Below, in pieces: positions 3,051 through 43,868 of a stretch of 45,201 bases of DNA. Origin of the DNA: Escherichia phage PC2; sequence record NC_073088, one strand, 5' to 3'. A program made the translations under genes and the position numbers. Below the pieces are notes generated by a model. The model was given only the letters and a program-made list of their open reading frames with translations, ran no database searches and had not been told where the DNA came from. Position 1 is the first letter of the stretch, and every line of letters begins with the position of its first letter.

Positions 3051-4475
3051 ATGGCACGTTTCCGACGTCGCGAATATCAGAAGTTGATAACCGCGTTCAT
3101 CCTCAAGCATAAGCGCTGCAATATTTGGGCGACAATGGGGTCGGGTAAAACCGGCGCGACCATGTGGGCGCTGAATAAAATGTTCCAGACCGGCATCCTG
3201 TCCAACCAGGAGGACCGCGTACTGGTGCTTGCCCCGCTGCGCGTCGCATCGGGCACATGGCCCCCGGAACAAGAAAAATGGCGCTTCCCCGCCCTGCTGG
3301 TAGTAGACGGCACCGGGTCAGAGAAGGACCGCATCGCTGCGCTTGAGAGCGACGCTAACGTGGTTTGTGTTAACTATGATGTGGTTGAGTGGCTTGTTGA
3401 GTATTGCGGCGACGAGTGGCCCTTTACGGTCGTTGTTGCCGATGAATCCACTAAGCTGAAAGGCTACCGCAGCAAGCAGGGGAGTAAGCGCGCCCGCGCC
3501 CTGGCGGCGATCGCACATAAGCGCGTCAAGCGCTGGATTAACCTTACCGGCACACCCGCACCAAACGGGCTGAAAGACCTATGGGGTCAGACGTGGTTTG
3601 TCGACGGTGGCGAACGCCTCGGCAGTAGCTATAAGGCATTCACGGATCGCTGGTTTATTAGCAAGCCTGTTAAGCCTGGCAGCTTCACTATGCAGCACGC
3701 CCCGCTAAAGAACTCCGAGAAGGAGATCCAACAACGCCTGTCTGACGTATCCCTTACCGTTGACGCGGCTGAATACTTCGGATGTGACAAGCCAATCTAT
3801 ACTCCGGTTGTTGTGGACCTGCCGAAGAAAGCCCGCAAGATTTATGACCAGTTCGAAGCGGAGCTATTTGCCGAACTGGAAAGCGGAACGGTGGAGGCGG
3901 CGAACGCTGCTTCGAAGACTATTAAGTGCCTTCAGCTTGCTTCCGGGGCCGTGTATAAAGTCGACGAAGACGGCGAGCGCACCGACGAATGGGTGAAAAT
4001 CCACGACGCTAAACTGGACGCGCTGGAAAGTATCGTGGAGGAGTTGAACGGCGCACCGCTGCTCGTCGCGTACCAGTACAAGCATGACCTGGCGCGTCTC
4101 AAGAAGAAATTCCCTCACGGCGTAGCGATGGGTAAGGGTAAGCAAGGCAATAAGGATATGGAAGCGTGGAACAGGGGCGAGATCCCCATCATGTTCGCGC
4201 ACCCGGCATCGGCGGGTCACGGCCTTAACTTGCAGGATGGCGGACACCACCTTGCCATCTTCTCAGACACCTGGAACTATGAGCATTTTTCGCAGATTGT
4301 GGAGCGTATCGGGCCGGTTCGCCAGATGCAAGCCGGACACCCTCGTCCGGTATTCGTCTACATTATCCAGGCGCGTGGCACACTGGATGAACTTGTCGCC
4401 GAGCGTCGCGACAGTAAGCGGGATATTCAGGACGACTTGATGGAATACATGAAAGCTAAAAAGGCACGCAAATGA
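3051..4475 (+). CDS. SF2 (SNF2/DEAD-like) DNA helicase
   Basis: Walker A GSGKTGAT, motif II VVVADESTKLK, C-terminal motif HPASAGHGLNLQ. Start set at MARFRRREYQ; an alternative GTG start at 2961 exists. Confidence 0.8.
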   Translation: MARFRRREYQKLITAFILKHKRCNIWATMGSGKTGATMWALNKMFQTGILSNQEDRVLVLAPLRVASGTWPPEQEKWRFPALLVVDGTGSEKDRIAALESDANVVCVNYDVVEWLVEYCGDEWPFTVVVADESTKLKGYRSKQGSKRARALAAIAHKRVKRWINLTGTPAPNGLKDLWGQTWFVDGGERLGSSYKAFTDRWFISKPVKPGSFTMQHAPLKNSEKEIQQRLSDVSLTVDAAEYFGCDKPIYTPVVVDLPKKARKIYDQFEAELFAELESGTVEAANAASKTIKCLQLASGAVYKVDEDGERTDEWVKIHDAKLDALESIVEELNGAPLLVAYQYKHDLARLKKKFPHGVAMGKGKQGNKDMEAWNRGEIPIMFAHPASAGHGLNLQDGGHHLAIFSDTWNYEHFSQIVERIGPVRQMQAGHPRPVFVYIIQARGTLDELVAERRDSKRDIQDDLMEYMKAKKARK

Positions 4476-10963: not shown

Positions 10964-11185
10964 ATGAAAACTTTAATTATGATTTGTGCGGTTCTTTTGT
11001 CCGGTTGCGCCGTAGAACGCAACAACGGCGATTGCGTTACGGTTGCTTACGGTAGCTGCATGTTGCGCTACGTTGACGGGCAAAAAGTCCCGGCAGGAGA
11101 TGTAGACATGCGATTCACTGGGCTGTCATCCGATAGCGACGGCAACTTCTCAGGCACAGTATCAGTTAAATCACGGGAGTGGTAA
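10964..11185 (+). CDS. Small lipoprotein (candidate superinfection-exclusion, Cor/Llp-like)
   Basis: 73 aa; signal peptide with lipobox LLSGC; opposite strand to the tail genes, between tail fibre and J; own promoter at 10905-10932. Confidence 0.6.
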   Translation: MKTLIMICAVLLSGCAVERNNGDCVTVAYGSCMLRYVDGQKVPAGDVDMRFTGLSSDSDGNFSGTVSVKSREW

Positions 11186-26986: not shown

Positions 26987-27016
26987 TTGCATTGCGAATG
27001 TTGGTTGCAGTATATT
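26987..27016 (+). promoter_or_regulatory. Sigma70-type promoter (TTGCAT-N18-TATATT) for the moron cassette, with overlapping palindrome
   Basis: Hexamers read directly; ATTGGTTGCACACCAAC at 27014-27030 overlaps the -10; AT-rich upstream region. Confidence 0.55.
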
Positions 27017-27051
27017 GGTTGCACACCAACAGAGATATGAAGGAAGACAAA

Positions 27052-27366
27052 ATGACTAACATGACCGTAGCAACTCCAGTAGACGCCGCAATGGCCCGTT
27101 TCAATAAAGCTACCGTAGCGAATACCTTTACCTTTCACGCAATGCGTAACGCGGAAGCGCTGAATCTGTGCCAGAGCATGAATGCTTCTGAAGCGGCAAA
27201 AGCGGCGATCAACTCCGCGATATTCGATAATCCGGCTTGCGGCCTGGTTCCGGCATCTTTCATAAACGCCCTGGTCGAAGCCTTTAACGATTTCATGTGC
27301 GTCGATGCCGTTGAAGCTGTATGTGCCCGCTTAACTTCCACCGGTGGCAACATCAAATTCAACTAA
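27052..27366 (+). CDS. Hypothetical protein, moron gene 1
   Basis: 104 aa; RBS GAAGGAAG; own promoter 26987-27016; plus strand inside the minus structural arm. Confidence 0.5.
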   Translation: MTNMTVATPVDAAMARFNKATVANTFTFHAMRNAEALNLCQSMNASEAAKAAINSAIFDNPACGLVPASFINALVEAFNDFMCVDAVEAVCARLTSTGGNIKFN

Positions 27367-27420
27367 ACCAATCGGGGGCGAAAGCCCCAATAATGAGGAC
27401 ACAAAAATGAGGACACAAAA

Positions 27421-28185
27421 ATGAGACTGACAAAAGACATTAAAAATCAGATTCTGGCTAACATCCTGCGCGACCACGAAATCGCAACCGAAGCCAAACA
27501 AATCATGATGGACTCACGCGACATGGCGTACGCAATCACGCTGGACTGTATGCCGGACGGCATTCGCACATTCGCCGCGCTACGCGAGCATATCCTGTTA
27601 ATCCGCGATGACCAGTCGCAGATGTACGGCGTCAGCATATACACCAACAAGGCGACGTATAGTTATAACTCCGACCGCCCGAAGGGTATCGGCAGCGTCT
27701 ATGACGCCACCTTTGAAATCAACGCAGGCGGCAATGTTCGCACCTTGTCATTGAGCGGCGACGGTCGCCAACACCGCATACATCGCGGGTACTGGGAAGA
27801 GAAATATATGAATAAGCTCGCGCCTGATCTCGGCGATATCGTTCCGGGGTTCGAGACAGTTATGCTCGCGTCAGTGTGCGAAGTGGACGAGGACGGGAAA
27901 GCGCTGCCGATATATCTCCCACGCGGTCGCGTAGACTACCCAGCGGATCATGATTTCTGTAAGCGCCTGGACCGTAACGACCAGGCCCGCCGCGAGTTGC
28001 GCGCGAAGTATGACGCGTTCAAACTCACCGTTACCGGTGTACTTGACCTGCACAATACTGACAAGAAGCTGATTAAGGCATGGCCTGAAGTCGAGCAATT
28101 CATCCCGTACCCGGACAAGCAAAAATCCACGGCGGTGGCGCTGGATGTGAAAACACTCAACGAGATTTGCGGCATTCCGCGCTAA
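27421..28185 (+). CDS. Hypothetical protein, moron gene 2
   Basis: 254 aa; no motif recognised; followed by a hairpin at 28191-28211. Confidence 0.55.
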   Translation: MRLTKDIKNQILANILRDHEIATEAKQIMMDSRDMAYAITLDCMPDGIRTFAALREHILLIRDDQSQMYGVSIYTNKATYSYNSDRPKGIGSVYDATFEINAGGNVRTLSLSGDGRQHRIHRGYWEEKYMNKLAPDLGDIVPGFETVMLASVCEVDEDGKALPIYLPRGRVDYPADHDFCKRLDRNDQARRELRAKYDAFKLTVTGVLDLHNTDKKLIKAWPEVEQFIPYPDKQKSTAVALDVKTLNEICGIPR

Positions 28186-28190
28186 CGAAA

Positions 28191-28211
28191 AAGGGGCCAT
28201 TACGTCCCCTT
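28191..28211. terminator. Hairpin between the moron cassette and the spanin genes
   Basis: AAGGGG-N9-CCCCTT, followed on plus by GATTATTTG. Confidence 0.45.
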
Positions 28212-28430
28212 GATTATTTGCTGCAACTCCAGCACCTGCGCCCTTAGCTTCGCCCCGCATTCCATATTTTTCACGTCAATCATCAAATCCTCGTCGGGGT
28301 CTGCAGACGGGTTATCGAACTTGCACGGCGGTCGCAGTGCCGATTCCGTTAGCGGCATCAACGGCACGCTGCTTGATCCGCACGCGCTCAGCGTCAAAAC
28401 TACAATCAGGGCGGTTAGGGCGCGTAACAT
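28200..28430 (-). CDS. o-spanin (Rz1-like outer-membrane lipoprotein)
   Basis: 76 aa from ATG 28430 (RBS AAGAGG); signal peptide with lipobox LSAC, Pro-rich mature part; starts inside the Rz-like ORF in another frame. Confidence 0.55.
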   Translation of the reverse strand: MLRALTALIVVLTLSACGSSSVPLMPLTESALRPPCKFDNPSADPDEDLMIDVKNMECGAKLRAQVLELQQIIKGT

Positions 28431-28641
28431 ATTTAACAACCTCTTTTGTGATAGTCCGGTATTCCACGTCGCGGGCTTGTTCTGCCTGCACGGAGCGCTC
28501 GATTACTTTAGTTTGCTGCCGTTGGGCTTGGGCTTGCGCTTCTTGCGCCGCCTCCGCCACTACGCCAGCGCGATAGGAGTCACCTAGCCAGAATCCTACC
28601 GCCAGACCTATAACCAGTCCAATCGCTGCATATTTAATCAC
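28312..28641 (-). CDS. i-spanin (Rz-like)
   Basis: 109 aa from GTG 28641 (RBS GGGGG); N-terminal transmembrane segment AAIGLVIGLAVGFWLG then Ala/Gln/Glu coiled-coil; overlaps the o-spanin ORF. Confidence 0.55.
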   Translation of the reverse strand: MIKYAAIGLVIGLAVGFWLGDSYRAGVVAEAAQEAQAQAQRQQTKVIERSVQAEQARDVEYRTITKEVVKYVTRPNRPDCSFDAERVRIKQRAVDAANGIGTATAVQVR

Positions 28642-29737
28642 GCCATAACCCCCGGTTTTTAAGCTGTGCAATAGTCATCAGTTCGCCAGAATCGGTGAAC
28701 ATCTTCGGCACTTTCACGCCGCGCATAATCTGGTCGGCGCGTTGCACTCCGTATAATTCTTCCAGGATATGGCGCGGCTGGCGCTGCACCCATGAGAAGA
28801 AATCAGTCTGCGCGTCGACCTGCTCACTCAGCAATCGACCCGCGTCAGCCTTCAGTGCCGGACGCTTACCACTGGGCCAATCTTCCATGCCTTTAACCTT
28901 CCACGTCTCCGTCGATCGGCAACAATAATGCAACTTGCCCGGACCAGCGCCATATTGTGACCCAGCCACCACTTTCCCGCCGCGCTTTCCTTTGGTGTCG
29001 GGAGTAACACCAACCGGATAAAACAGGCGATCGCGTAGCTGGCACATGGGAGAAGTATGCGTGTCCAATGTAGATAACCATTGGCGACCTTCGAGAATAT
29101 CGTCATTTGCTTTTACCATTAGTTCGCGGGCTGTAGCCGCATAGTGGTTTACTGCGGATTTAACAACGCTCGATATAGCTTGCGCACTACGACCACCTAG
29201 CGCGCGCCTCACGTCCGCGATAATTTCCATCGTTGGCTTGCCCTGGATGAATCCCGCTCGCACCTGATTACCGATCTGCGTCCTGGTCCACTCCGAGAGT
29301 GAGTCGGGCCATTGCATCATCGTATTACCCTGGAACGGGTTTTTCATCGCAGTCGCTGCGATCTGCGCACCTGTAACTACGCCCACCACCTCGACCGCAG
29401 GTACGGCTACCACCGGCTGGATCGCTGCCGTTAATGTGTCAGCGAGATAATCGGCCTCCGTGTCGGCGAACTCCTGAAGGCTTTCAGCCAGCGCCTTAAA
29501 CTCGGTGCGCAGTTCTGTTTTAACGGTCTTGTCGAGTTGCGTTAGCAGAGTGGTAAGTGCCTTGTTGTTCATGGACTTTTTGCCATCAAGTAACTCGGTC
29601 AGCTTACCCAGTAACGTGGGCCGGAACTTCTCCCACATAGCCAGCACCTTTCGCGCCTGGTCATTGCTCAGGCGCTGGGTGAAGATGTGACGGCGAATCA
29701 TTCGATCCGCCATATATTGATTAATTGTCTTTGCCAT
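28634..29737 (-). CDS. Head morphogenesis protein (SPP1 gp7 / Mu F-like)
   Basis: 367 aa directly downstream of portal; overlaps portal by 17 nt. Confidence 0.65.
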   Translation of the reverse strand: MAKTINQYMADRMIRRHIFTQRLSNDQARKVLAMWEKFRPTLLGKLTELLDGKKSMNNKALTTLLTQLDKTVKTELRTEFKALAESLQEFADTEADYLADTLTAAIQPVVAVPAVEVVGVVTGAQIAATAMKNPFQGNTMMQWPDSLSEWTRTQIGNQVRAGFIQGKPTMEIIADVRRALGGRSAQAISSVVKSAVNHYAATARELMVKANDDILEGRQWLSTLDTHTSPMCQLRDRLFYPVGVTPDTKGKRGGKVVAGSQYGAGPGKLHYCCRSTETWKVKGMEDWPSGKRPALKADAGRLLSEQVDAQTDFFSWVQRQPRHILEELYGVQRADQIMRGVKVPKMFTDSGELMTIAQLKNRGLWRD

Positions 29738-31241
29738 TGTCCGCTACCTTGTCCTGGTCTTCTTCGGTAGATTCTACCGCATCCGGGGACATTTGAGGCA
29801 ATGGATTCTGATTTCGCAGTTCGTCTTCCACCTGCTCGACGGTTTGCGAGTCATCAATGACGCCCTGGGCCATCATCCACTTGATAAAGTCCGCCAGACG
29901 GACAGTACCAGTCTGCACACCTGCCATCATCGCGGTCATAAGCTGTGCGTCCACCGTGATCTCGGTGTAAAACTTATTCAACGTGACTTGCTGGGTTGCG
30001 GTGTCCCCCGTGAAAAGCTGGACGATTTGCAGCGCACGGTTGAAAGCCTTCTCAACATTACCGGCAATCAGCGACAAAATACTGTTATCAGTCTGCGCAT
30101 CATAAGCCGCCTCCGTTGCCGTCTTAGGTGCGGTCCCCTTCTCAACCAGGGCCGCGCCCAGTTTAGCCATTTGCAATTCGCGTCGCTCACACAGCGCAAC
30201 TGACAGGTTTCTCTCCTCAGCCTGAAGCAGTTTAGCGTCCATATTCTGCCCCAGGATAACACCCTTAGTCGCGCCTAGTGCGATGCCGCCCTTCAGGTTT
30301 TTATCGGCCCATGATTGGGTAAGACCGGTCGCAATGAGTGTAGGTTGGCCCACAATGTGCGCAATCTCGGCGACGTCTGCTTCGGCGTTGTAGTGCTTAA
30401 TGTTGATGGATGCAATATCCGCCAGCGGTGCGGCGTCCGGCGTCGCGTTGTTGTCCACAGCACCACACCAGCAAAATGGCAGTTGAGTAAGCGCATTACC
30501 GGAGGCATCCACCAGCGGCACTAAGTCGGTGCGGGTGAAGCCGCGCGGCAAGTCCATCTGCACGTCTGACGTGTCCGCGTTGTAAAACCAGCGTCGACCA
30601 TGTGCCTTGCCGTCAATCATGCGAAGCTCGGTCCAGATGGTTACCTCGTGGTTTGCGAAGTCGTCCGGGTCTTCTGTGCTGATTTCGTCCGTTTCCTTCA
30701 GCACGATTAGCGTGTCGACACCGTGGGTCTGCCGCCAGTTGATGATCTGCTCTGCCGTATACAGGCGGATAAGCGGGCGGTGTGACGCCATCTCAGCGGC
30801 TGTCTGCGGAACTACGTTACCCAGTTCATCAAAATGCGCCTGGCGGTCGTAGTCCACCATAAAGCCTGCGCGGCCCGATTGCAGCACTTCCGACATAGCG
30901 CCGCGCAGGAGTTGCGCCAGAGGCATCCCGCTGCCGTCTACGTCATCAATCAGGTCCGCCATTGCCCCAGTAAGGTCTATACTCACCGGCTTGGCGAAGG
31001 CAACGCCTAACAAGGCATTCAGTGTGCGGGCGGTGGCGTTCAGGAAGACAGCACGTTGCTTATACGCCTTATACCGTGCCCGTGATTTCGGGTCGGTGGT
31101 GTCGCCGCTTGCTGGGTGTGGCAGGTATAATGGGCCGCACGCCTTCACGGCGCGCTCCCCTGCTACGCAGTCACGGATCATTTTCCACTCTGGCGCGATG
31201 CGCGCATAGAGCGGGTGCTGGTTGTCAACGTTAACGGTCAT
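29721..31241 (-). CDS. Portal protein
   Basis: 506 aa directly downstream of the large terminase; acidic C-terminal tail. Confidence 0.8.
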   Translation of the reverse strand: MTVNVDNQHPLYARIAPEWKMIRDCVAGERAVKACGPLYLPHPASGDTTDPKSRARYKAYKQRAVFLNATARTLNALLGVAFAKPVSIDLTGAMADLIDDVDGSGMPLAQLLRGAMSEVLQSGRAGFMVDYDRQAHFDELGNVVPQTAAEMASHRPLIRLYTAEQIINWRQTHGVDTLIVLKETDEISTEDPDDFANHEVTIWTELRMIDGKAHGRRWFYNADTSDVQMDLPRGFTRTDLVPLVDASGNALTQLPFCWCGAVDNNATPDAAPLADIASINIKHYNAEADVAEIAHIVGQPTLIATGLTQSWADKNLKGGIALGATKGVILGQNMDAKLLQAEERNLSVALCERRELQMAKLGAALVEKGTAPKTATEAAYDAQTDNSILSLIAGNVEKAFNRALQIVQLFTGDTATQQVTLNKFYTEITVDAQLMTAMMAGVQTGTVRLADFIKWMMAQGVIDDSQTVEQVEDELRNQNPLPQMSPDAVESTEEDQDKVADNGKDN

Positions 31242-34895: not shown

Positions 34896-35063
34896 TTACG
34901 CTGCGGGGCCGGATTCCGTCTGCGGTGGTGGGCTTGGCAGCTTCGCATCGAAGACGCCTGCATGGCTGATAGTGTCCGCGATGATAGCGCGTGCGCCGGG
35001 GTCTTCGGTTTTAGCCAGCGCGGCGAGCGCGTCGGCGTTATGATCAAGAATGCTTTTTAACAT
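34896..35063 (-). CDS. Small ORF between endolysin and terminator
   Basis: 55 aa (MLKSILDHNADALAALAKTEDPGARAIIADTISHAGVFDAKLPSPPPQTESGPAA); RBS GAGG about 9 nt upstream; not in the ORF track (<60 aa). Confidence 0.3.
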   Translation of the reverse strand: MLKSILDHNADALAALAKTEDPGARAIIADTISHAGVFDAKLPSPPPQTESGPAA

Positions 35064-35079: not shown

Positions 35080-35571
35080 TTATGCAGCGTTACGCCCGAT
35101 CTTCTCGGCAACGTCCCACTGCTTACCATCAAACAACGCCTGTCTGCCGATTGCACGGCGTACCAGACCCTTAAGCACTTCCCCGCCTTGCTTGCGGAAC
35201 TGCGGCAGAGTAGCACGGACCTTCGCCCAGTCGCCCAGTCGCACCGCATCATCGAAATCATTCGCGATGTTATCCGGTACGATCGGACCTTGACCGGCAT
35301 TGATTACCAGGTCCACCAGCGCGTCGAATTGCGCCTGGTTAATGCTCGGATGTGCGTATTTGTTCACCCAGTCCTCGGCATACGCCACATCTCGCTTGAG
35401 CAGTTCCAGCGCTTCCGCACGGGTAATGCTTCGAGGCGGGTTAGTGCCGGTATGACCATAACCCCAGGTGTACAGGCCGCGGGCCTGCTCTTTCTTAGTC
35501 GCGAAATACGGCACTGGGCTGAAAGTCTCCCATGCTGCCGTAAATCGTAGACCGTTATCACTGAATCGCAT
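35080..35571 (-). CDS. Endolysin, T4 lysozyme-like (GH24 family)
   Basis: 163 aa; motif GLRFTAAWETF...YTWGYGHTG parallels T4 lysozyme [21 protein letters not shown]; directly after the holin-like genes. Confidence 0.85.
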   Translation of the reverse strand: MRFSDNGLRFTAAWETFSPVPYFATKKEQARGLYTWGYGHTGTNPPRSITRAEALELLKRDVAYAEDWVNKYAHPSINQAQFDALVDLVINAGQGPIVPDNIANDFDDAVRLGDWAKVRATLPQFRKQGGEVLKGLVRRAIGRQALFDGKQWDVAEKIGRNAA

Positions 35572-35803
35572 GTTTTACCCCATTCAAAACAGCATTACGC
35601 AGGGTGCGCAATGCAAACAGCCAGATTAACGCGGTCCAGGTGGTATCAGATACGTCTCCTGTTTGCAACAATCCGATAAGACAGATCATTGCCGTTAACA
35701 GATACAGCACCCGGCCTAAGATACCATCCTGAACGGACGGCGCATATACGTTAAACAGGGACGAAGCCCCGATGATAACAAACAACAGGACGGAGATAAT
35801 CAT
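35558..35803 (-). CDS. Holin / antiholin-like small membrane protein
   Basis: 81 aa with 2-3 predicted transmembrane segments; ATGA overlap with upstream holin; overlaps endolysin start by 14 nt. Confidence 0.5.
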   Translation of the reverse strand: MIISVLLFVIIGASSLFNVYAPSVQDGILGRVLYLLTAMICLIGLLQTGDVSDTTWTALIWLFALRTLRNAVLNGVKHAIQ

Positions 35804-36090
35804 TTTGCACCCCCCGGAAGTCGGAACGACGCAATAGTCTCCCTGATCCGGTCGGCGATTGGCATCCAGAAGATTGCGGTTACGAAGCCCAAACCGGCGA
35901 CAGTGCGCTCACCCGACAAACCAGCCCACTCGGCAATAGCCGGTGCGCCAAATATGGCACACAGGAAGCCAACTACAACATACAAAACGAAGTTTAGCGG
36001 CCCCTTCGTAGCCTCACCATGAATGCGTGCGCCTACGAAGCCACCCGCCAGACATGCCAGGGCGAATAGCCACTCGTTTAGCTTATCCAT
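35800..36090 (-). CDS. Holin
   Basis: 96 aa with about 3 hydrophobic segments and a charged C-terminus; first gene of the holin-endolysin block. Confidence 0.55.
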   Translation of the reverse strand: MDKLNEWLFALACLAGGFVGARIHGEATKGPLNFVLYVVVGFLCAIFGAPAIAEWAGLSGERTVAGLGFVTAIFWMPIADRIRETIASFRLPGGAK

Positions 36091-42249: not shown

Positions 42250-42438
42250 ATGGCTATATTCTTCGTTTTATTTCGTTGCCGTATTACCGGCGACGAGCAA
42301 CCGGAAATTGTTATGAATCAAAACTGGAATTGCTGCTGGATGCAAGCCCGAGGACTGGCGGCTACCATGAACAATGCCGCTAAGCGGGCCAATGTTGAAC
42401 ATGATTATTACATTGCTCAGTTTTCAAGGGTGGAATAA
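42250..42438 (+). CDS. Hypothetical small protein
   Basis: 62-aa ORF starting right after the upstream stop; TAATG overlap with the nuclease gene. Confidence 0.3.
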   Translation: MAIFFVLFRCRITGDEQPEIVMNQNWNCCWMQARGLAATMNNAAKRANVEHDYYIAQFSRVE

Positions 42439-43868
42439 TGGCGATTAAACCAAAACGTAAAACGCAATCCGGTAGCAATACGGAACACTCATTACTCGGA
42501 CCGTCCGGTGCTAAAAAATGGATGGGTTGCCCTGCCGCCCTGGTGGTGGAAAAAGATATCCCGAACGAATCCGGGCAAGCCGCGATTAACGGTACGAGTA
42601 TGCACACCGTATCTGAGGTGGTGCTAAACCGCATTATCGCCGGTGAGAAGCTGATAACCGCGAAGACGTATAAAGGGTGCTACGTCGAGAACGAAGGCAA
42701 GGGGCCAGTAAAGGCACACCCTAAAGCACCGAAAGGCGGCGTACTGGTCAACGACGACATGGTGAAACAGTGCGACGCGTACATCGACCACTGGCGACCG
42801 CTCCTCGAAGTGGCGGAGTTTGTCCAGCTTGAGATGCGCGCCGATCTGACCCGCGTCCTTCACTCAGGCTACGAGATCGACGGCAACAGGATTAAAACGT
42901 TCGGTACTGCCGATATGGTCATGGTCATGAAGAAGACTGACGGCACGTACATGCTTATTGTTGGCGACCTGAAGACCGGGCGGCATAAGGTCGAGGCGAA
43001 AGAAAACAAACAGCTTATGTTGTACGCGATCGGACTGCTGCGCAAGCTGCACACTATGTACGACATTACGACCGTTCGCCTGGTTATCTTCCAGCCGTAT
43101 TGCGGCGGGGCGTCGGAGTGGGATATTTCGGTAGAAGCGCTGGAGATATTCGCGAAGTTTGCATCCAAGCGCGCTATTGCCGCACTGGAGGCGTATTCCC
43201 GCGGCAAGAAGGGACTCACCCGCGCGGACTTCCGGCCCAGCGTCGATGCGTGCCAGTGGTGCCGATTTGCGGATCAGTGTAGTGCCCGCGCTAAGGCCGC
43301 AATCGACACGATGACCCCACCGACGGCAACCGACGAAGACCTGGGCGACGACGTGAGTATTGCGACAGAGGAAGAATGCGCCAACCATGCCCGCAATATG
43401 GCCCGCGAAGCGCGGAAGGCGGCACGACGAGCGAAGCGTGGTAAGAAAGAAGCAGCCCCCGGTGCTATGAGCGCTGCGGAACTGCGCAAGGCTTATGAAG
43501 GCCTGGACGCAATGCGCCAGCACATCAAGGCTATCGAGTCCGCGGTATTCAAGGCGGTCATGGCTGGCGATGGCGAATCGCTGGGCCTCAAGATGGTTGC
43601 CGGTAAGGAAGGGGTCCGTAAGTGGGCGGACGAGAGCGAAGTGATTGAAATATTCACGAAGGCCCGGATCAAGCGCGATGTGATGTACAAAGAAACATTG
43701 CTCAGTCCTACGGACGCCGAGAAGGTGCTGAAGGACGAGAAGCCGAAAGTGTGGGCTAAATTATGTGATAAAATCACGCGCGCACCGGCTAAACCGGTAT
43801 TAGCACCCATCGACGACCCGCGCCCTGCGTGGTCGGAGGCCACTGACGAGGACTTAAGCAATGAATAA
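42438..43868 (+). CDS. Cas4-like PD-(D/E)xK nuclease (DUF2800-like) with Fe-S cysteine cluster
   Basis: 476 aa; N-terminal Cys (WMGCPA), core GDLKTGRHKVEAKENKQLMLYA (QxxxY), C-terminal CQWCRFADQC. Confidence 0.7.
   Translation: MAIKPKRKTQSGSNTEHSLLGPSGAKKWMGCPAALVVEKDIPNESGQAAINGTSMHTVSEVVLNRIIAGEKLITAKTYKGCYVENEGKGPVKAHPKAPKGGVLVNDDMVKQCDAYIDHWRPLLEVAEFVQLEMRADLTRVLHSGYEIDGNRIKTFGTADMVMVMKKTDGTYMLIVGDLKTGRHKVEAKENKQLMLYAIGLLRKLHTMYDITTVRLVIFQPYCGGASEWDISVEALEIFAKFASKRAIAALEAYSRGKKGLTRADFRPSVDACQWCRFADQCSARAKAAIDTMTPPTATDEDLGDDVSIATEEECANHARNMAREARKAARRAKRGKKEAAPGAMSAAELRKAYEGLDAMRQHIKAIESAVFKAVMAGDGESLGLKMVAGKEGVRKWADESEVIEIFTKARIKRDVMYKETLLSPTDAEKVLKDEKPKVWAKLCDKITRAPAKPVLAPIDDPRPAWSEATDEDLSNE

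Follow-up and report, generated by a model that had tools for sequence, protein, structure and literature searches.

Spanin biology is established for lambda Rz/Rz1, P2 LysB/LysC and T4 PseT.3/PseT.2, and the lysB/lysC genes of P2 sit in the lysis cassette of that phage. For the relatives closest to the phage analysed here, Kongari et al. 2018 (PMC6139136) placed HK578, JL1, SSL-2009a, SO-1, EP23 and EK99P-1 in 'Jersey', an overlapped two-component spanin family for which 40% is the minimum both in identity and in the share of length covered, and explicitly discussed a shorter 'EP23 to SO-1' subfamily. In a recent Dhillonvirus paper, an 'Rz-like spanin' that lies seven gene numbers from the endolysin is counted in the lysis system.

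Here, we describe a pair of overlapping genes in Escherichia phage PC2 (sequence record NC_073088; the window is the whole 45,201-nt stretch analysed). This is very probably the two-component spanin locus of a Dhillonvirus (HK578-like) coliphage, and it belongs to the overlapped Jersey family. The pair is an ordinary module of this kind, already catalogued for the genus, real and typical of its lineage. In itself it matters little: it confirms published annotation, and its displaced position is inherited as the norm in Dhillonvirus and Guernseyvirinae. Some novelty lies in a single lead, a frame switch that could connect overlapped with embedded spanin loci; the rest is already known.

Anatomy and family membership of the gene pair

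A preliminary description of this DNA had proposed overlapping Rz-like and Rz1-like reading frames, the first with a transmembrane segment and a coiled coil and the second with an LSAC lipobox. Both frames are in the ORF list where it had placed them (Table 1), and the transmembrane segment and lipobox are seen in the sequence and its hydropathy; the coiled coil is tentative, as the structure model of the protein is of low confidence (below).

Table 1. Features of the predicted spanin locus and the lysis cassette in the window
Feature	Position	Strand	Description
Short GC-rich hairpin	28193..28208	.	Between convergent stops of the o-spanin and Nmad5 genes; U5 follows in the minus-strand transcript
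Predicted o-spanin gene	28200..28430	-	ATG start; 76 aa; signal peptidase II lipobox LSAC (Cys17); Gly at +2
Dual-coding overlap, 119 nt	28312..28430	-	o-gene in +1 frame of i-gene; 'overlapped' spanin architecture
Predicted i-spanin gene	28312..28641	-	GTG start; 109 aa; N-terminal transmembrane anchor 1-20; helical periplasmic domain; single Cys80
Codons of i-spanin motif ITKEVVKY (ATCACAAAAGAGGTTGTTAAATAT G)	28429..28452	-	Also o-spanin Shine-Dalgarno and ATG
Head-morphogenesis (MuF-like) gene	28634..29737	-	Immediately upstream of i-gene; phrog_241, E 4e-117
Endolysin (phage lysozyme) gene	35080..35571	-	PF00959, E 4.9e-21; phrog_7 endolysin, E 3e-35
Holin gene 2	35558..35803	-	phrog_2508 holin, E 8.8e-27; 81 aa
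Holin gene 1	35800..36090	-	phrog_2359 holin, E 8.5e-32; 96 aa

The candidate i-spanin is small, with a single N-terminal transmembrane segment and a periplasmic domain that is mostly helical according to a low-confidence AlphaFold2 (AF2) model. Residues 1-20 are its sole hydrophobic stretch (mean Kyte-Doolittle value 1.95), and the model (pLDDT 54) places helices at residues 3-71 and 84-97. A longer, TTG-started version of the frame extends to 28671; relatives are annotated from the GTG at 28641.

The candidate o-spanin begins with MLRALTALIVVLTLSAC, followed by G, and so combines a basic residue, a hydrophobic core (Kyte-Doolittle value 2.75) and the lipobox L-S-A-C, recognised by signal peptidase II; the inner-membrane retention signal, an Asp at +2, is absent. 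Past the lipobox, a Pro-containing linker carries Cys36, and a C-terminal helix (residues 45-75) carries Cys58. The AF2 model of this protein (pLDDT 84) consists of a signal helix, the extended linker and a 31-residue C-terminal helix at pLDDT 90-97. A profile of the o-spanin collects at least 200 homologous protein clusters of 76-88 aa, and nine positions (P35, C36, D46, D48, D52, C58, L62, R63 and Q70) are invariant in 40 diverse members, at least 90% of which keep the lipobox Cys. Both subunits have conserved periplasmic cysteines that could serve for intermolecular disulfides, C36 and C58 in the o-spanin and, nearly invariant in its homologues, the only Cys of the i-spanin, C80. The residues around one conserved Cys of each subunit are similar, with P-x-C-[KS]-F-[DE] at 77-83 of the i-spanin (RPDCSFD) and at 33-39 of the o-spanin (RPPCKFD); the same motif occurs in both subunits of contigs L018 and L020. 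The likeness may stem from a common disulfide context, from an ancient duplication or from chance.

Homology points to the same assignment. The i-spanin matches phrog_2536 (E 1.4e-36) and the o-spanin matches phrog_5672 (E 4e-26) and phrog_1267 (E 2e-11), all three of them 'Rz-like spanin' families. The 3-kb region around the pair is 94-95% identical in DNA to many Dhillonvirus (HK578-like) coliphages, SD276, B2, SSL-2009a and YD-2008.s among them, and 156 phage records match it. Its identity is 95% to SSL-2009a, whose gp05 and gp06 are annotated as Rz-like spanin; the YD-2008.s orthologues bear the same annotation in RefSeq, and in the BASEL phages PaulFeyerabend, GeorgBuechner and Oekolampad the protein is named i-spanin. 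Indeed, proteins 95-97% identical to the i-spanin carry the names i-spanin or Rz-like spanin. At the protein level, the i-spanin is 96% identical to that of JL1 and 88% to that of SO-1, inside the Jersey threshold, and 97% to that of IMG/VR contig L005, from whose o-spanin the one in the window differs at one residue. A word-indexed search with the i-spanin returned close relatives only. The preliminary reading of the pair as a spanin is therefore upheld by its sequence hallmarks, the PHROG families, the RefSeq and BASEL names and membership of the Jersey family (Kongari et al. 2018).

Comparison with described systems shows where the pair belongs. The EP23/HK578/JL1/SSL-2009a/SO-1 subfamily of Jersey has the same genes: the two overlap, two helices are predicted in the short i-spanin, two periplasmic Cys are conserved in the o-spanin, and the pair follows a head-morphogenesis gene. 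There is no difference of substance, and the phage in the window is another isolate of the genus. The P2 LysB/LysC pair shares the overlapped +1 architecture. Against the LysC model (PF23793; gathering score 27 bits), the o-spanin homologues P0038 and P0132, more typical members of their family, score just under the gathering level (26.3-26.4 bits, E 7e-6), while two others, P0010 and P0012, reach 16-18 bits; the two proteins of the window match no Pfam family at E <= 0.1, the lambda Rz/Rz1 and LysC models included. Since these scans are empty for both proteins, membership of the lambda Rz/Rz1 family (PF03245, PF06085) is rejected. The lambda pair resembles this one in combining an inner-membrane protein that has an N-terminal transmembrane domain with an outer-membrane lipoprotein encoded in its +1 frame, and in having periplasmic Cys, but there is no sequence match. 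Furthermore, the o-gene of the window runs past the end of the i-gene instead of being fully embedded, the pair does not adjoin the endolysin gene, and its o-spanin has a long, confidently predicted C-terminal helix, whereas lambda Rz1 is unstructured. The T4 PseT.3/PseT.2 genes are likewise located away from the holin and endolysin genes, and a C-terminal helix is also predicted for the T4 o-spanin (Kongari et al. 2018, Fig. 8 legend, PMC6139136); however, their architecture is separated, not overlapped, and no sequence relationship was detected. Our literature searches found no experimental test of any member of this spanin family; the functional assignment is based on anatomy, on gene context and on homology to families that are already annotated.

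Gene order around the pair

The holin-like genes and endolysin that the preliminary description had located at 35080-36090 are borne out by their matches to phrog_2359, phrog_2508 and PF00959. The two holin-family genes, one of them a possible antiholin gene, are consecutive and overlap, and the endolysin that they precede is devoid of an N-terminal hydrophobic segment. This holin-holin-endolysin cassette is on the same strand as the pair, 6.4 kb upstream in the direction of transcription. Linkage of spanins to holin and endolysin, usual and non-obligatory, is thus absent from the window: 6439 nt separate the start of the i-spanin gene from the stop of the endolysin gene, a separation that is conserved in relatives. 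Separated spanins had been described at the outset as known but uncommon. The separation stands, and within this group it is the usual, already published order, of which the earlier reader was unaware.

The comparison of gene order in related phages that had been suggested for this locus shows that they share the displaced pair. In the Jerseyvirus Shelanagig, the pair, annotated as i-spanin and o-spanin, has the capsid-morphogenesis/decoration genes on one side and the scaffold gene on the other, with holin and endolysin ~8.2 kb away across the genome end; the genome announcement of Shelanagig does not mention lysis genes. Kagunavirus-like Bas74 has the same order, with the pair between the head-morphogenesis and scaffold genes. 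Because these phages share it, the displaced position is ancestral to Dhillonvirus and Guernseyvirinae and no oddity of this genome. In the window, a two-gene cassette on the opposite strand (26992-28185, +) lies between the o-spanin gene and the scaffold gene. Its first ORF (26992-27366) matches phrog_24635, of unknown function, and its second (27421-28185) encodes a protein with a full-length match to 'nucleotide modification associated domain 5' (Nmad5; PF18757, E 4e-61). The cassette looks like a Dhillonvirus-specific insertion, since the scaffold gene directly follows the pair in Jerseyvirus and Bas74.

More distant relatives place the pair among lysis genes. In three IMG/VR contigs (L020-L022), at 40% identity, the same overlapped pair comes right after a holin (phrog_198), a second holin (phrog_217) and an endolysin (phrog_181) and precedes the terminase, which is the order of a classic lambdoid lysis cassette. 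The pair is also directly downstream of an endolysin in L024 and L025; in L023 the endolysin is ~1 kb upstream, with a small ORF and an opposite-strand ORF in between. The lysis-gene context of these relatives is the strongest non-experimental support for a spanin function of the pair.

This context also bears on the alternative that the preliminary description had left standing, namely an envelope-targeting module of another kind. The pair would then act in superinfection exclusion or receptor masking, and the true spanin of the phage would be absent or unrecognised. Phage lipoproteins such as Cor and Llp act in exclusion, the pair lies inside the head module far from holin and endolysin, and Pfam gives no Rz/Rz1 match, all of which would suit such a role. 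Yet the 40%-identity relatives are the last genes of holin-holin-endolysin cassettes, and the nested +1 layout, the Cys in the periplasmic parts and the matches to PHROG spanin families all accord with spanins. Moreover, the window already contains a separate Cor-like lipoprotein beside the tail genes, and a phage of a Gram-negative host would, if this pair were discounted, be left without any spanin: a lipobox scan of all ORFs in the 45.2-kb window, which amounts to essentially a complete genome for this genus (44-45 kb), yielded no second spanin candidate. We therefore consider the exclusion-type module very improbable, and the claim unsupported.

Other lipobox ORFs of the window were weighed as spanin genes and set aside. 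Two of them, 29857-29970 (+) and 42380-42634 (-), are short and antisense to long coding ORFs. The 55-aa ORF that follows the endolysin (34896-35063) has neither a transmembrane domain nor a lipobox. The only other lipoprotein that is credible, of 73 aa (MKTLIMICAVLLSGC...), is encoded on the opposite strand at 10964-11185 (+), with tail genes on both sides; its matches are to phrog_4281 (E 2e-33) and, weakly, to the Cor superinfection-exclusion family (E 5e-4). This Cor-like lipoprotein lacks a C-terminal transmembrane domain and has no partner; it probably acts in exclusion and is no spanin.

As had been noted in the preliminary description, the pair is located at the 3' end of the head-morphogenesis gene. 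It closes the terS-terL-portal-head-morphogenesis string, on the same strand as the lysis cassette upstream, and terminator-like hairpins are found between these units. The GTG of the i-gene falls within the final codons and stop of the head-morphogenesis gene, an 8-nt overlap (GTGATTAA) that suggests co-transcription and translational coupling of the i-spanin gene. Downstream of the pair, the short GC-rich hairpin in Table 1 was found by a terminator scan on the + strand; its minus-strand fold (-14.1 kcal/mol) is not statistically distinguished from shuffles (z = -1.1), and it is possibly a bidirectional terminator. A promoter scan found sites no more numerous than in shuffles, and none before the spanin pair. 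Since neither scan is distinguished from shuffles, the transcription unit of the pair is inferred from gene order and overlaps.

Most likely, and by analogy with the established spanins, an inner-membrane anchor would hold the i-spanin so that its helical domain reaches into the periplasm, and the o-spanin, once lipidated, would be sorted to the inner leaflet of the outer membrane. The two proteins would bind through their C-terminal regions into disulfide-linked complexes that are threaded through the murein and span the periplasm. During late gene expression these complexes would pile up harmlessly, held by the murein meshwork; once the holin triggers and the endolysin destroys the peptidoglycan, the freed complexes would fuse the inner and outer membranes and complete lysis. 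Spanins held in check by intact murein, and not by a timing of their own, would need only late expression and no linkage to holin and endolysin, which would explain how the head operon can house the pair and why it has been stably inherited there. Late expression would be supplied by the place of the pair at the 3' end of the terS-terL-portal-MuF string. A role of the pair in head assembly or packaging, inherited with the head module across Dhillonvirus and Guernseyvirinae, could be read from its conserved position between head-morphogenesis and scaffold genes and from the translational overlap with the MuF-like gene, but both products are by sequence exported or membrane-anchored, a poor fit to cytoplasmic capsid assembly, and homologues elsewhere occupy lysis cassettes and not head modules, which makes such a role highly implausible.

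Dual coding in the overlap

The o-gene of a spanin pair is embedded in, overlaps or adjoins the i-gene; here the two overlap, with the o-gene in the +1 frame. Selection on each frame was assessed in an alignment of 18 Dhillonvirus copies of the 442-nt locus, 17 of them unique. The overlap is conserved, and the alignment has zero indels. In the segment that codes for the i-spanin only (211 nt), synonymous and non-synonymous changes number 159 and 66 in its own frame vs 22 and 202 in a control frame. In the segment that codes for the o-spanin only (112 nt beyond the i-gene stop), they number 111 and 47 in its own frame vs 3 and 146 in the i frame. Within the overlap, variable sites are split equally over the third codon positions of the two frames, 16 and 16. 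Both spanin genes are under purifying selection in their own frames, and the pair is more than chance ORFs.

Translation of the o-gene would begin inside the most conserved part of the i-gene. The i-spanin motif ITKEVV(K/R)Y is encoded by AAAGAGGTnGTnAAATATG, which in the +1 frame contains the Shine-Dalgarno sequence and start codon of the o-spanin; the Shine-Dalgarno sequence, AAGAGG, is 9 nt upstream of the ATG. The o-spanin ATG is at offset 22 of the motif codons in nine sequences (the window, L001, L016, L020 and L022-L026), and again in L028, L032, L033, L036, L039 and L043. The conservation of ITKEVV(K/R)Y may be due to this dual use of its codons as the ribosome-binding site and start of the o-spanin. 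In Jerseyvirus and Bas74, AAATACG or AAGTAC is found at that site, and the o-spanin starts elsewhere (at a GTG in Shelanagig).

These observations leave little room for the view that only the i-spanin-like gene is real and that the lipoprotein ORF is a chance out-of-frame stretch, unconserved and untranslated, an outcome that the preliminary description had named as one that would tell against its proposal. At 76 aa the ORF is short, and in many GenBank records it is either missing from the annotation or called 'hypothetical'. Against this, synonymous changes outnumber non-synonymous ones 111 to 47 in the o frame beyond the i-gene stop, no indels occur in the 18 genomes, and AAGAGG precedes the ATG at 9 nt. 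At least 200 protein clusters retain the lipobox together with the invariant PC...D.D...D...C...LR...Q pattern, and the AF2 model reaches pLDDT 84. The ORF is conserved and under purifying selection in its own frame, and the chance-ORF reading is extremely unlikely. Even jointly, an exclusion-type module, an untranslated lipoprotein ORF and a head-assembly role are improbable. The case serves mainly to remind annotators that o-spanins often, and i-spanins sometimes, are still called 'hypothetical' after automated annotation.

Overlapped and embedded architectures

Distant relatives of the i-spanin are longer, with 164-177 aa (L023, L025, L026, L028, L031-L037 and P0001-P0005). These long i-spanins match phrog_4952 ('signal peptide motif') over their full length and phrog_2536 over their N-terminal two-thirds (E 2e-9 to 4e-13), and each of their genes holds an embedded lipoprotein ORF. 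Based on the N-terminal transmembrane domain and embedded lipobox ORF of the members in IMG/VR and Logan contigs (L023, L025, L026, L028 and L031-L037), phrog_4952, filed under 'signal peptide motif / other', seems to comprise i-spanins of the embedded architecture, and its present label looks like an annotation gap.

Overlapped Jersey/Dhillonvirus loci and these embedded loci may derive from one nested pair by a frame switch of ~1 nt in the 3' third, a reading that we put forward tentatively, as a serious possibility that falls somewhat short of probable. Such a switch may have shifted a Cys-containing C-terminal helix from the i-spanin, in the embedded type, to the o-spanin, in the overlapped type, or the reverse. 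The two types share the placement of the o-spanin ATG, at offset 22 inside the ITKEVV(K/R)Y codons, and none of 6,700 decoy ORFs outranks the embedded o-spanins, which an HMM of the N-terminal half of overlapped o-spanins finds at E-values of 7e-6 to 1e-2. They part in the 3' third. Overlapped loci have an early stop in the i frame, and it is their o frame that runs on into a helix bearing a conserved Cys; embedded loci have the stop in the o frame, and it is their i frame that runs on into a helix bearing a conserved Cys. In the o frame of most overlapped loci examined, the codon of the helix Cys is found 171-177 nt past the shared ATG, with L024 at 216 nt; of the four embedded loci measured, three have it in the i frame, 176 nt past the ATG, and L025 has it at 197 nt. 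Apart from L024 and L025, which depart from the pattern, these loci have equal tails of 18-21 aa after the helix Cys.

Direct comparison of the two C-terminal helices by hhalign gives P = 7e-4 to 3e-3 at a probability of only 11-27%. In controls, the reversed alignment scores 15-17 vs 26 for the real one, and one of 200 column shuffles reaches the real score. The two helix families are each other's best non-family match among ~6,200 decoy ORFs, with weak E-values of 0.4-2. Counting against a frame switch, the Cys is offset by one residue in the helix alignment. An HMM of the C-terminal half of 40 o-spanins did not find the long i-spanins (E = 13), which lowers our confidence in the switch. An exhaustive phmmer search of 1.84 billion representatives with the o-spanin of the window did not reach the long i-spanins; its 14 matches at E <= 1e-3 are nearly all short o-spanin-like proteins, with one weak match (E 9e-4) of 1,666 aa. 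The statistical support for the frame-switch reading is weak to moderate, and convergence of short amphipathic helices is a possible alternative source of the likeness between the two Cys-bearing helices.

Kongari et al. 2018 (PMC6139136) reported no family that links embedded with overlapped or separated architectures and favoured independent origins, and our literature search for later reports of an embedded-overlapped link found none. If true, the frame switch would be a counter-example to that statement and the first such link. It would also mean that the same helix works when attached to either the inner- or the outer-membrane subunit, a natural 'split-site permutation'. The switch would bear on how the C-termini of i- and o-spanins cooperate in membrane fusion, and could be of interest to spanin specialists. 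Among the embedded loci, contig L028 encodes in the endolysin position (3642-4004) a Tlde1 domain (PF10908, L,D-transpeptidase-like fold) and not a lysozyme or amidase.
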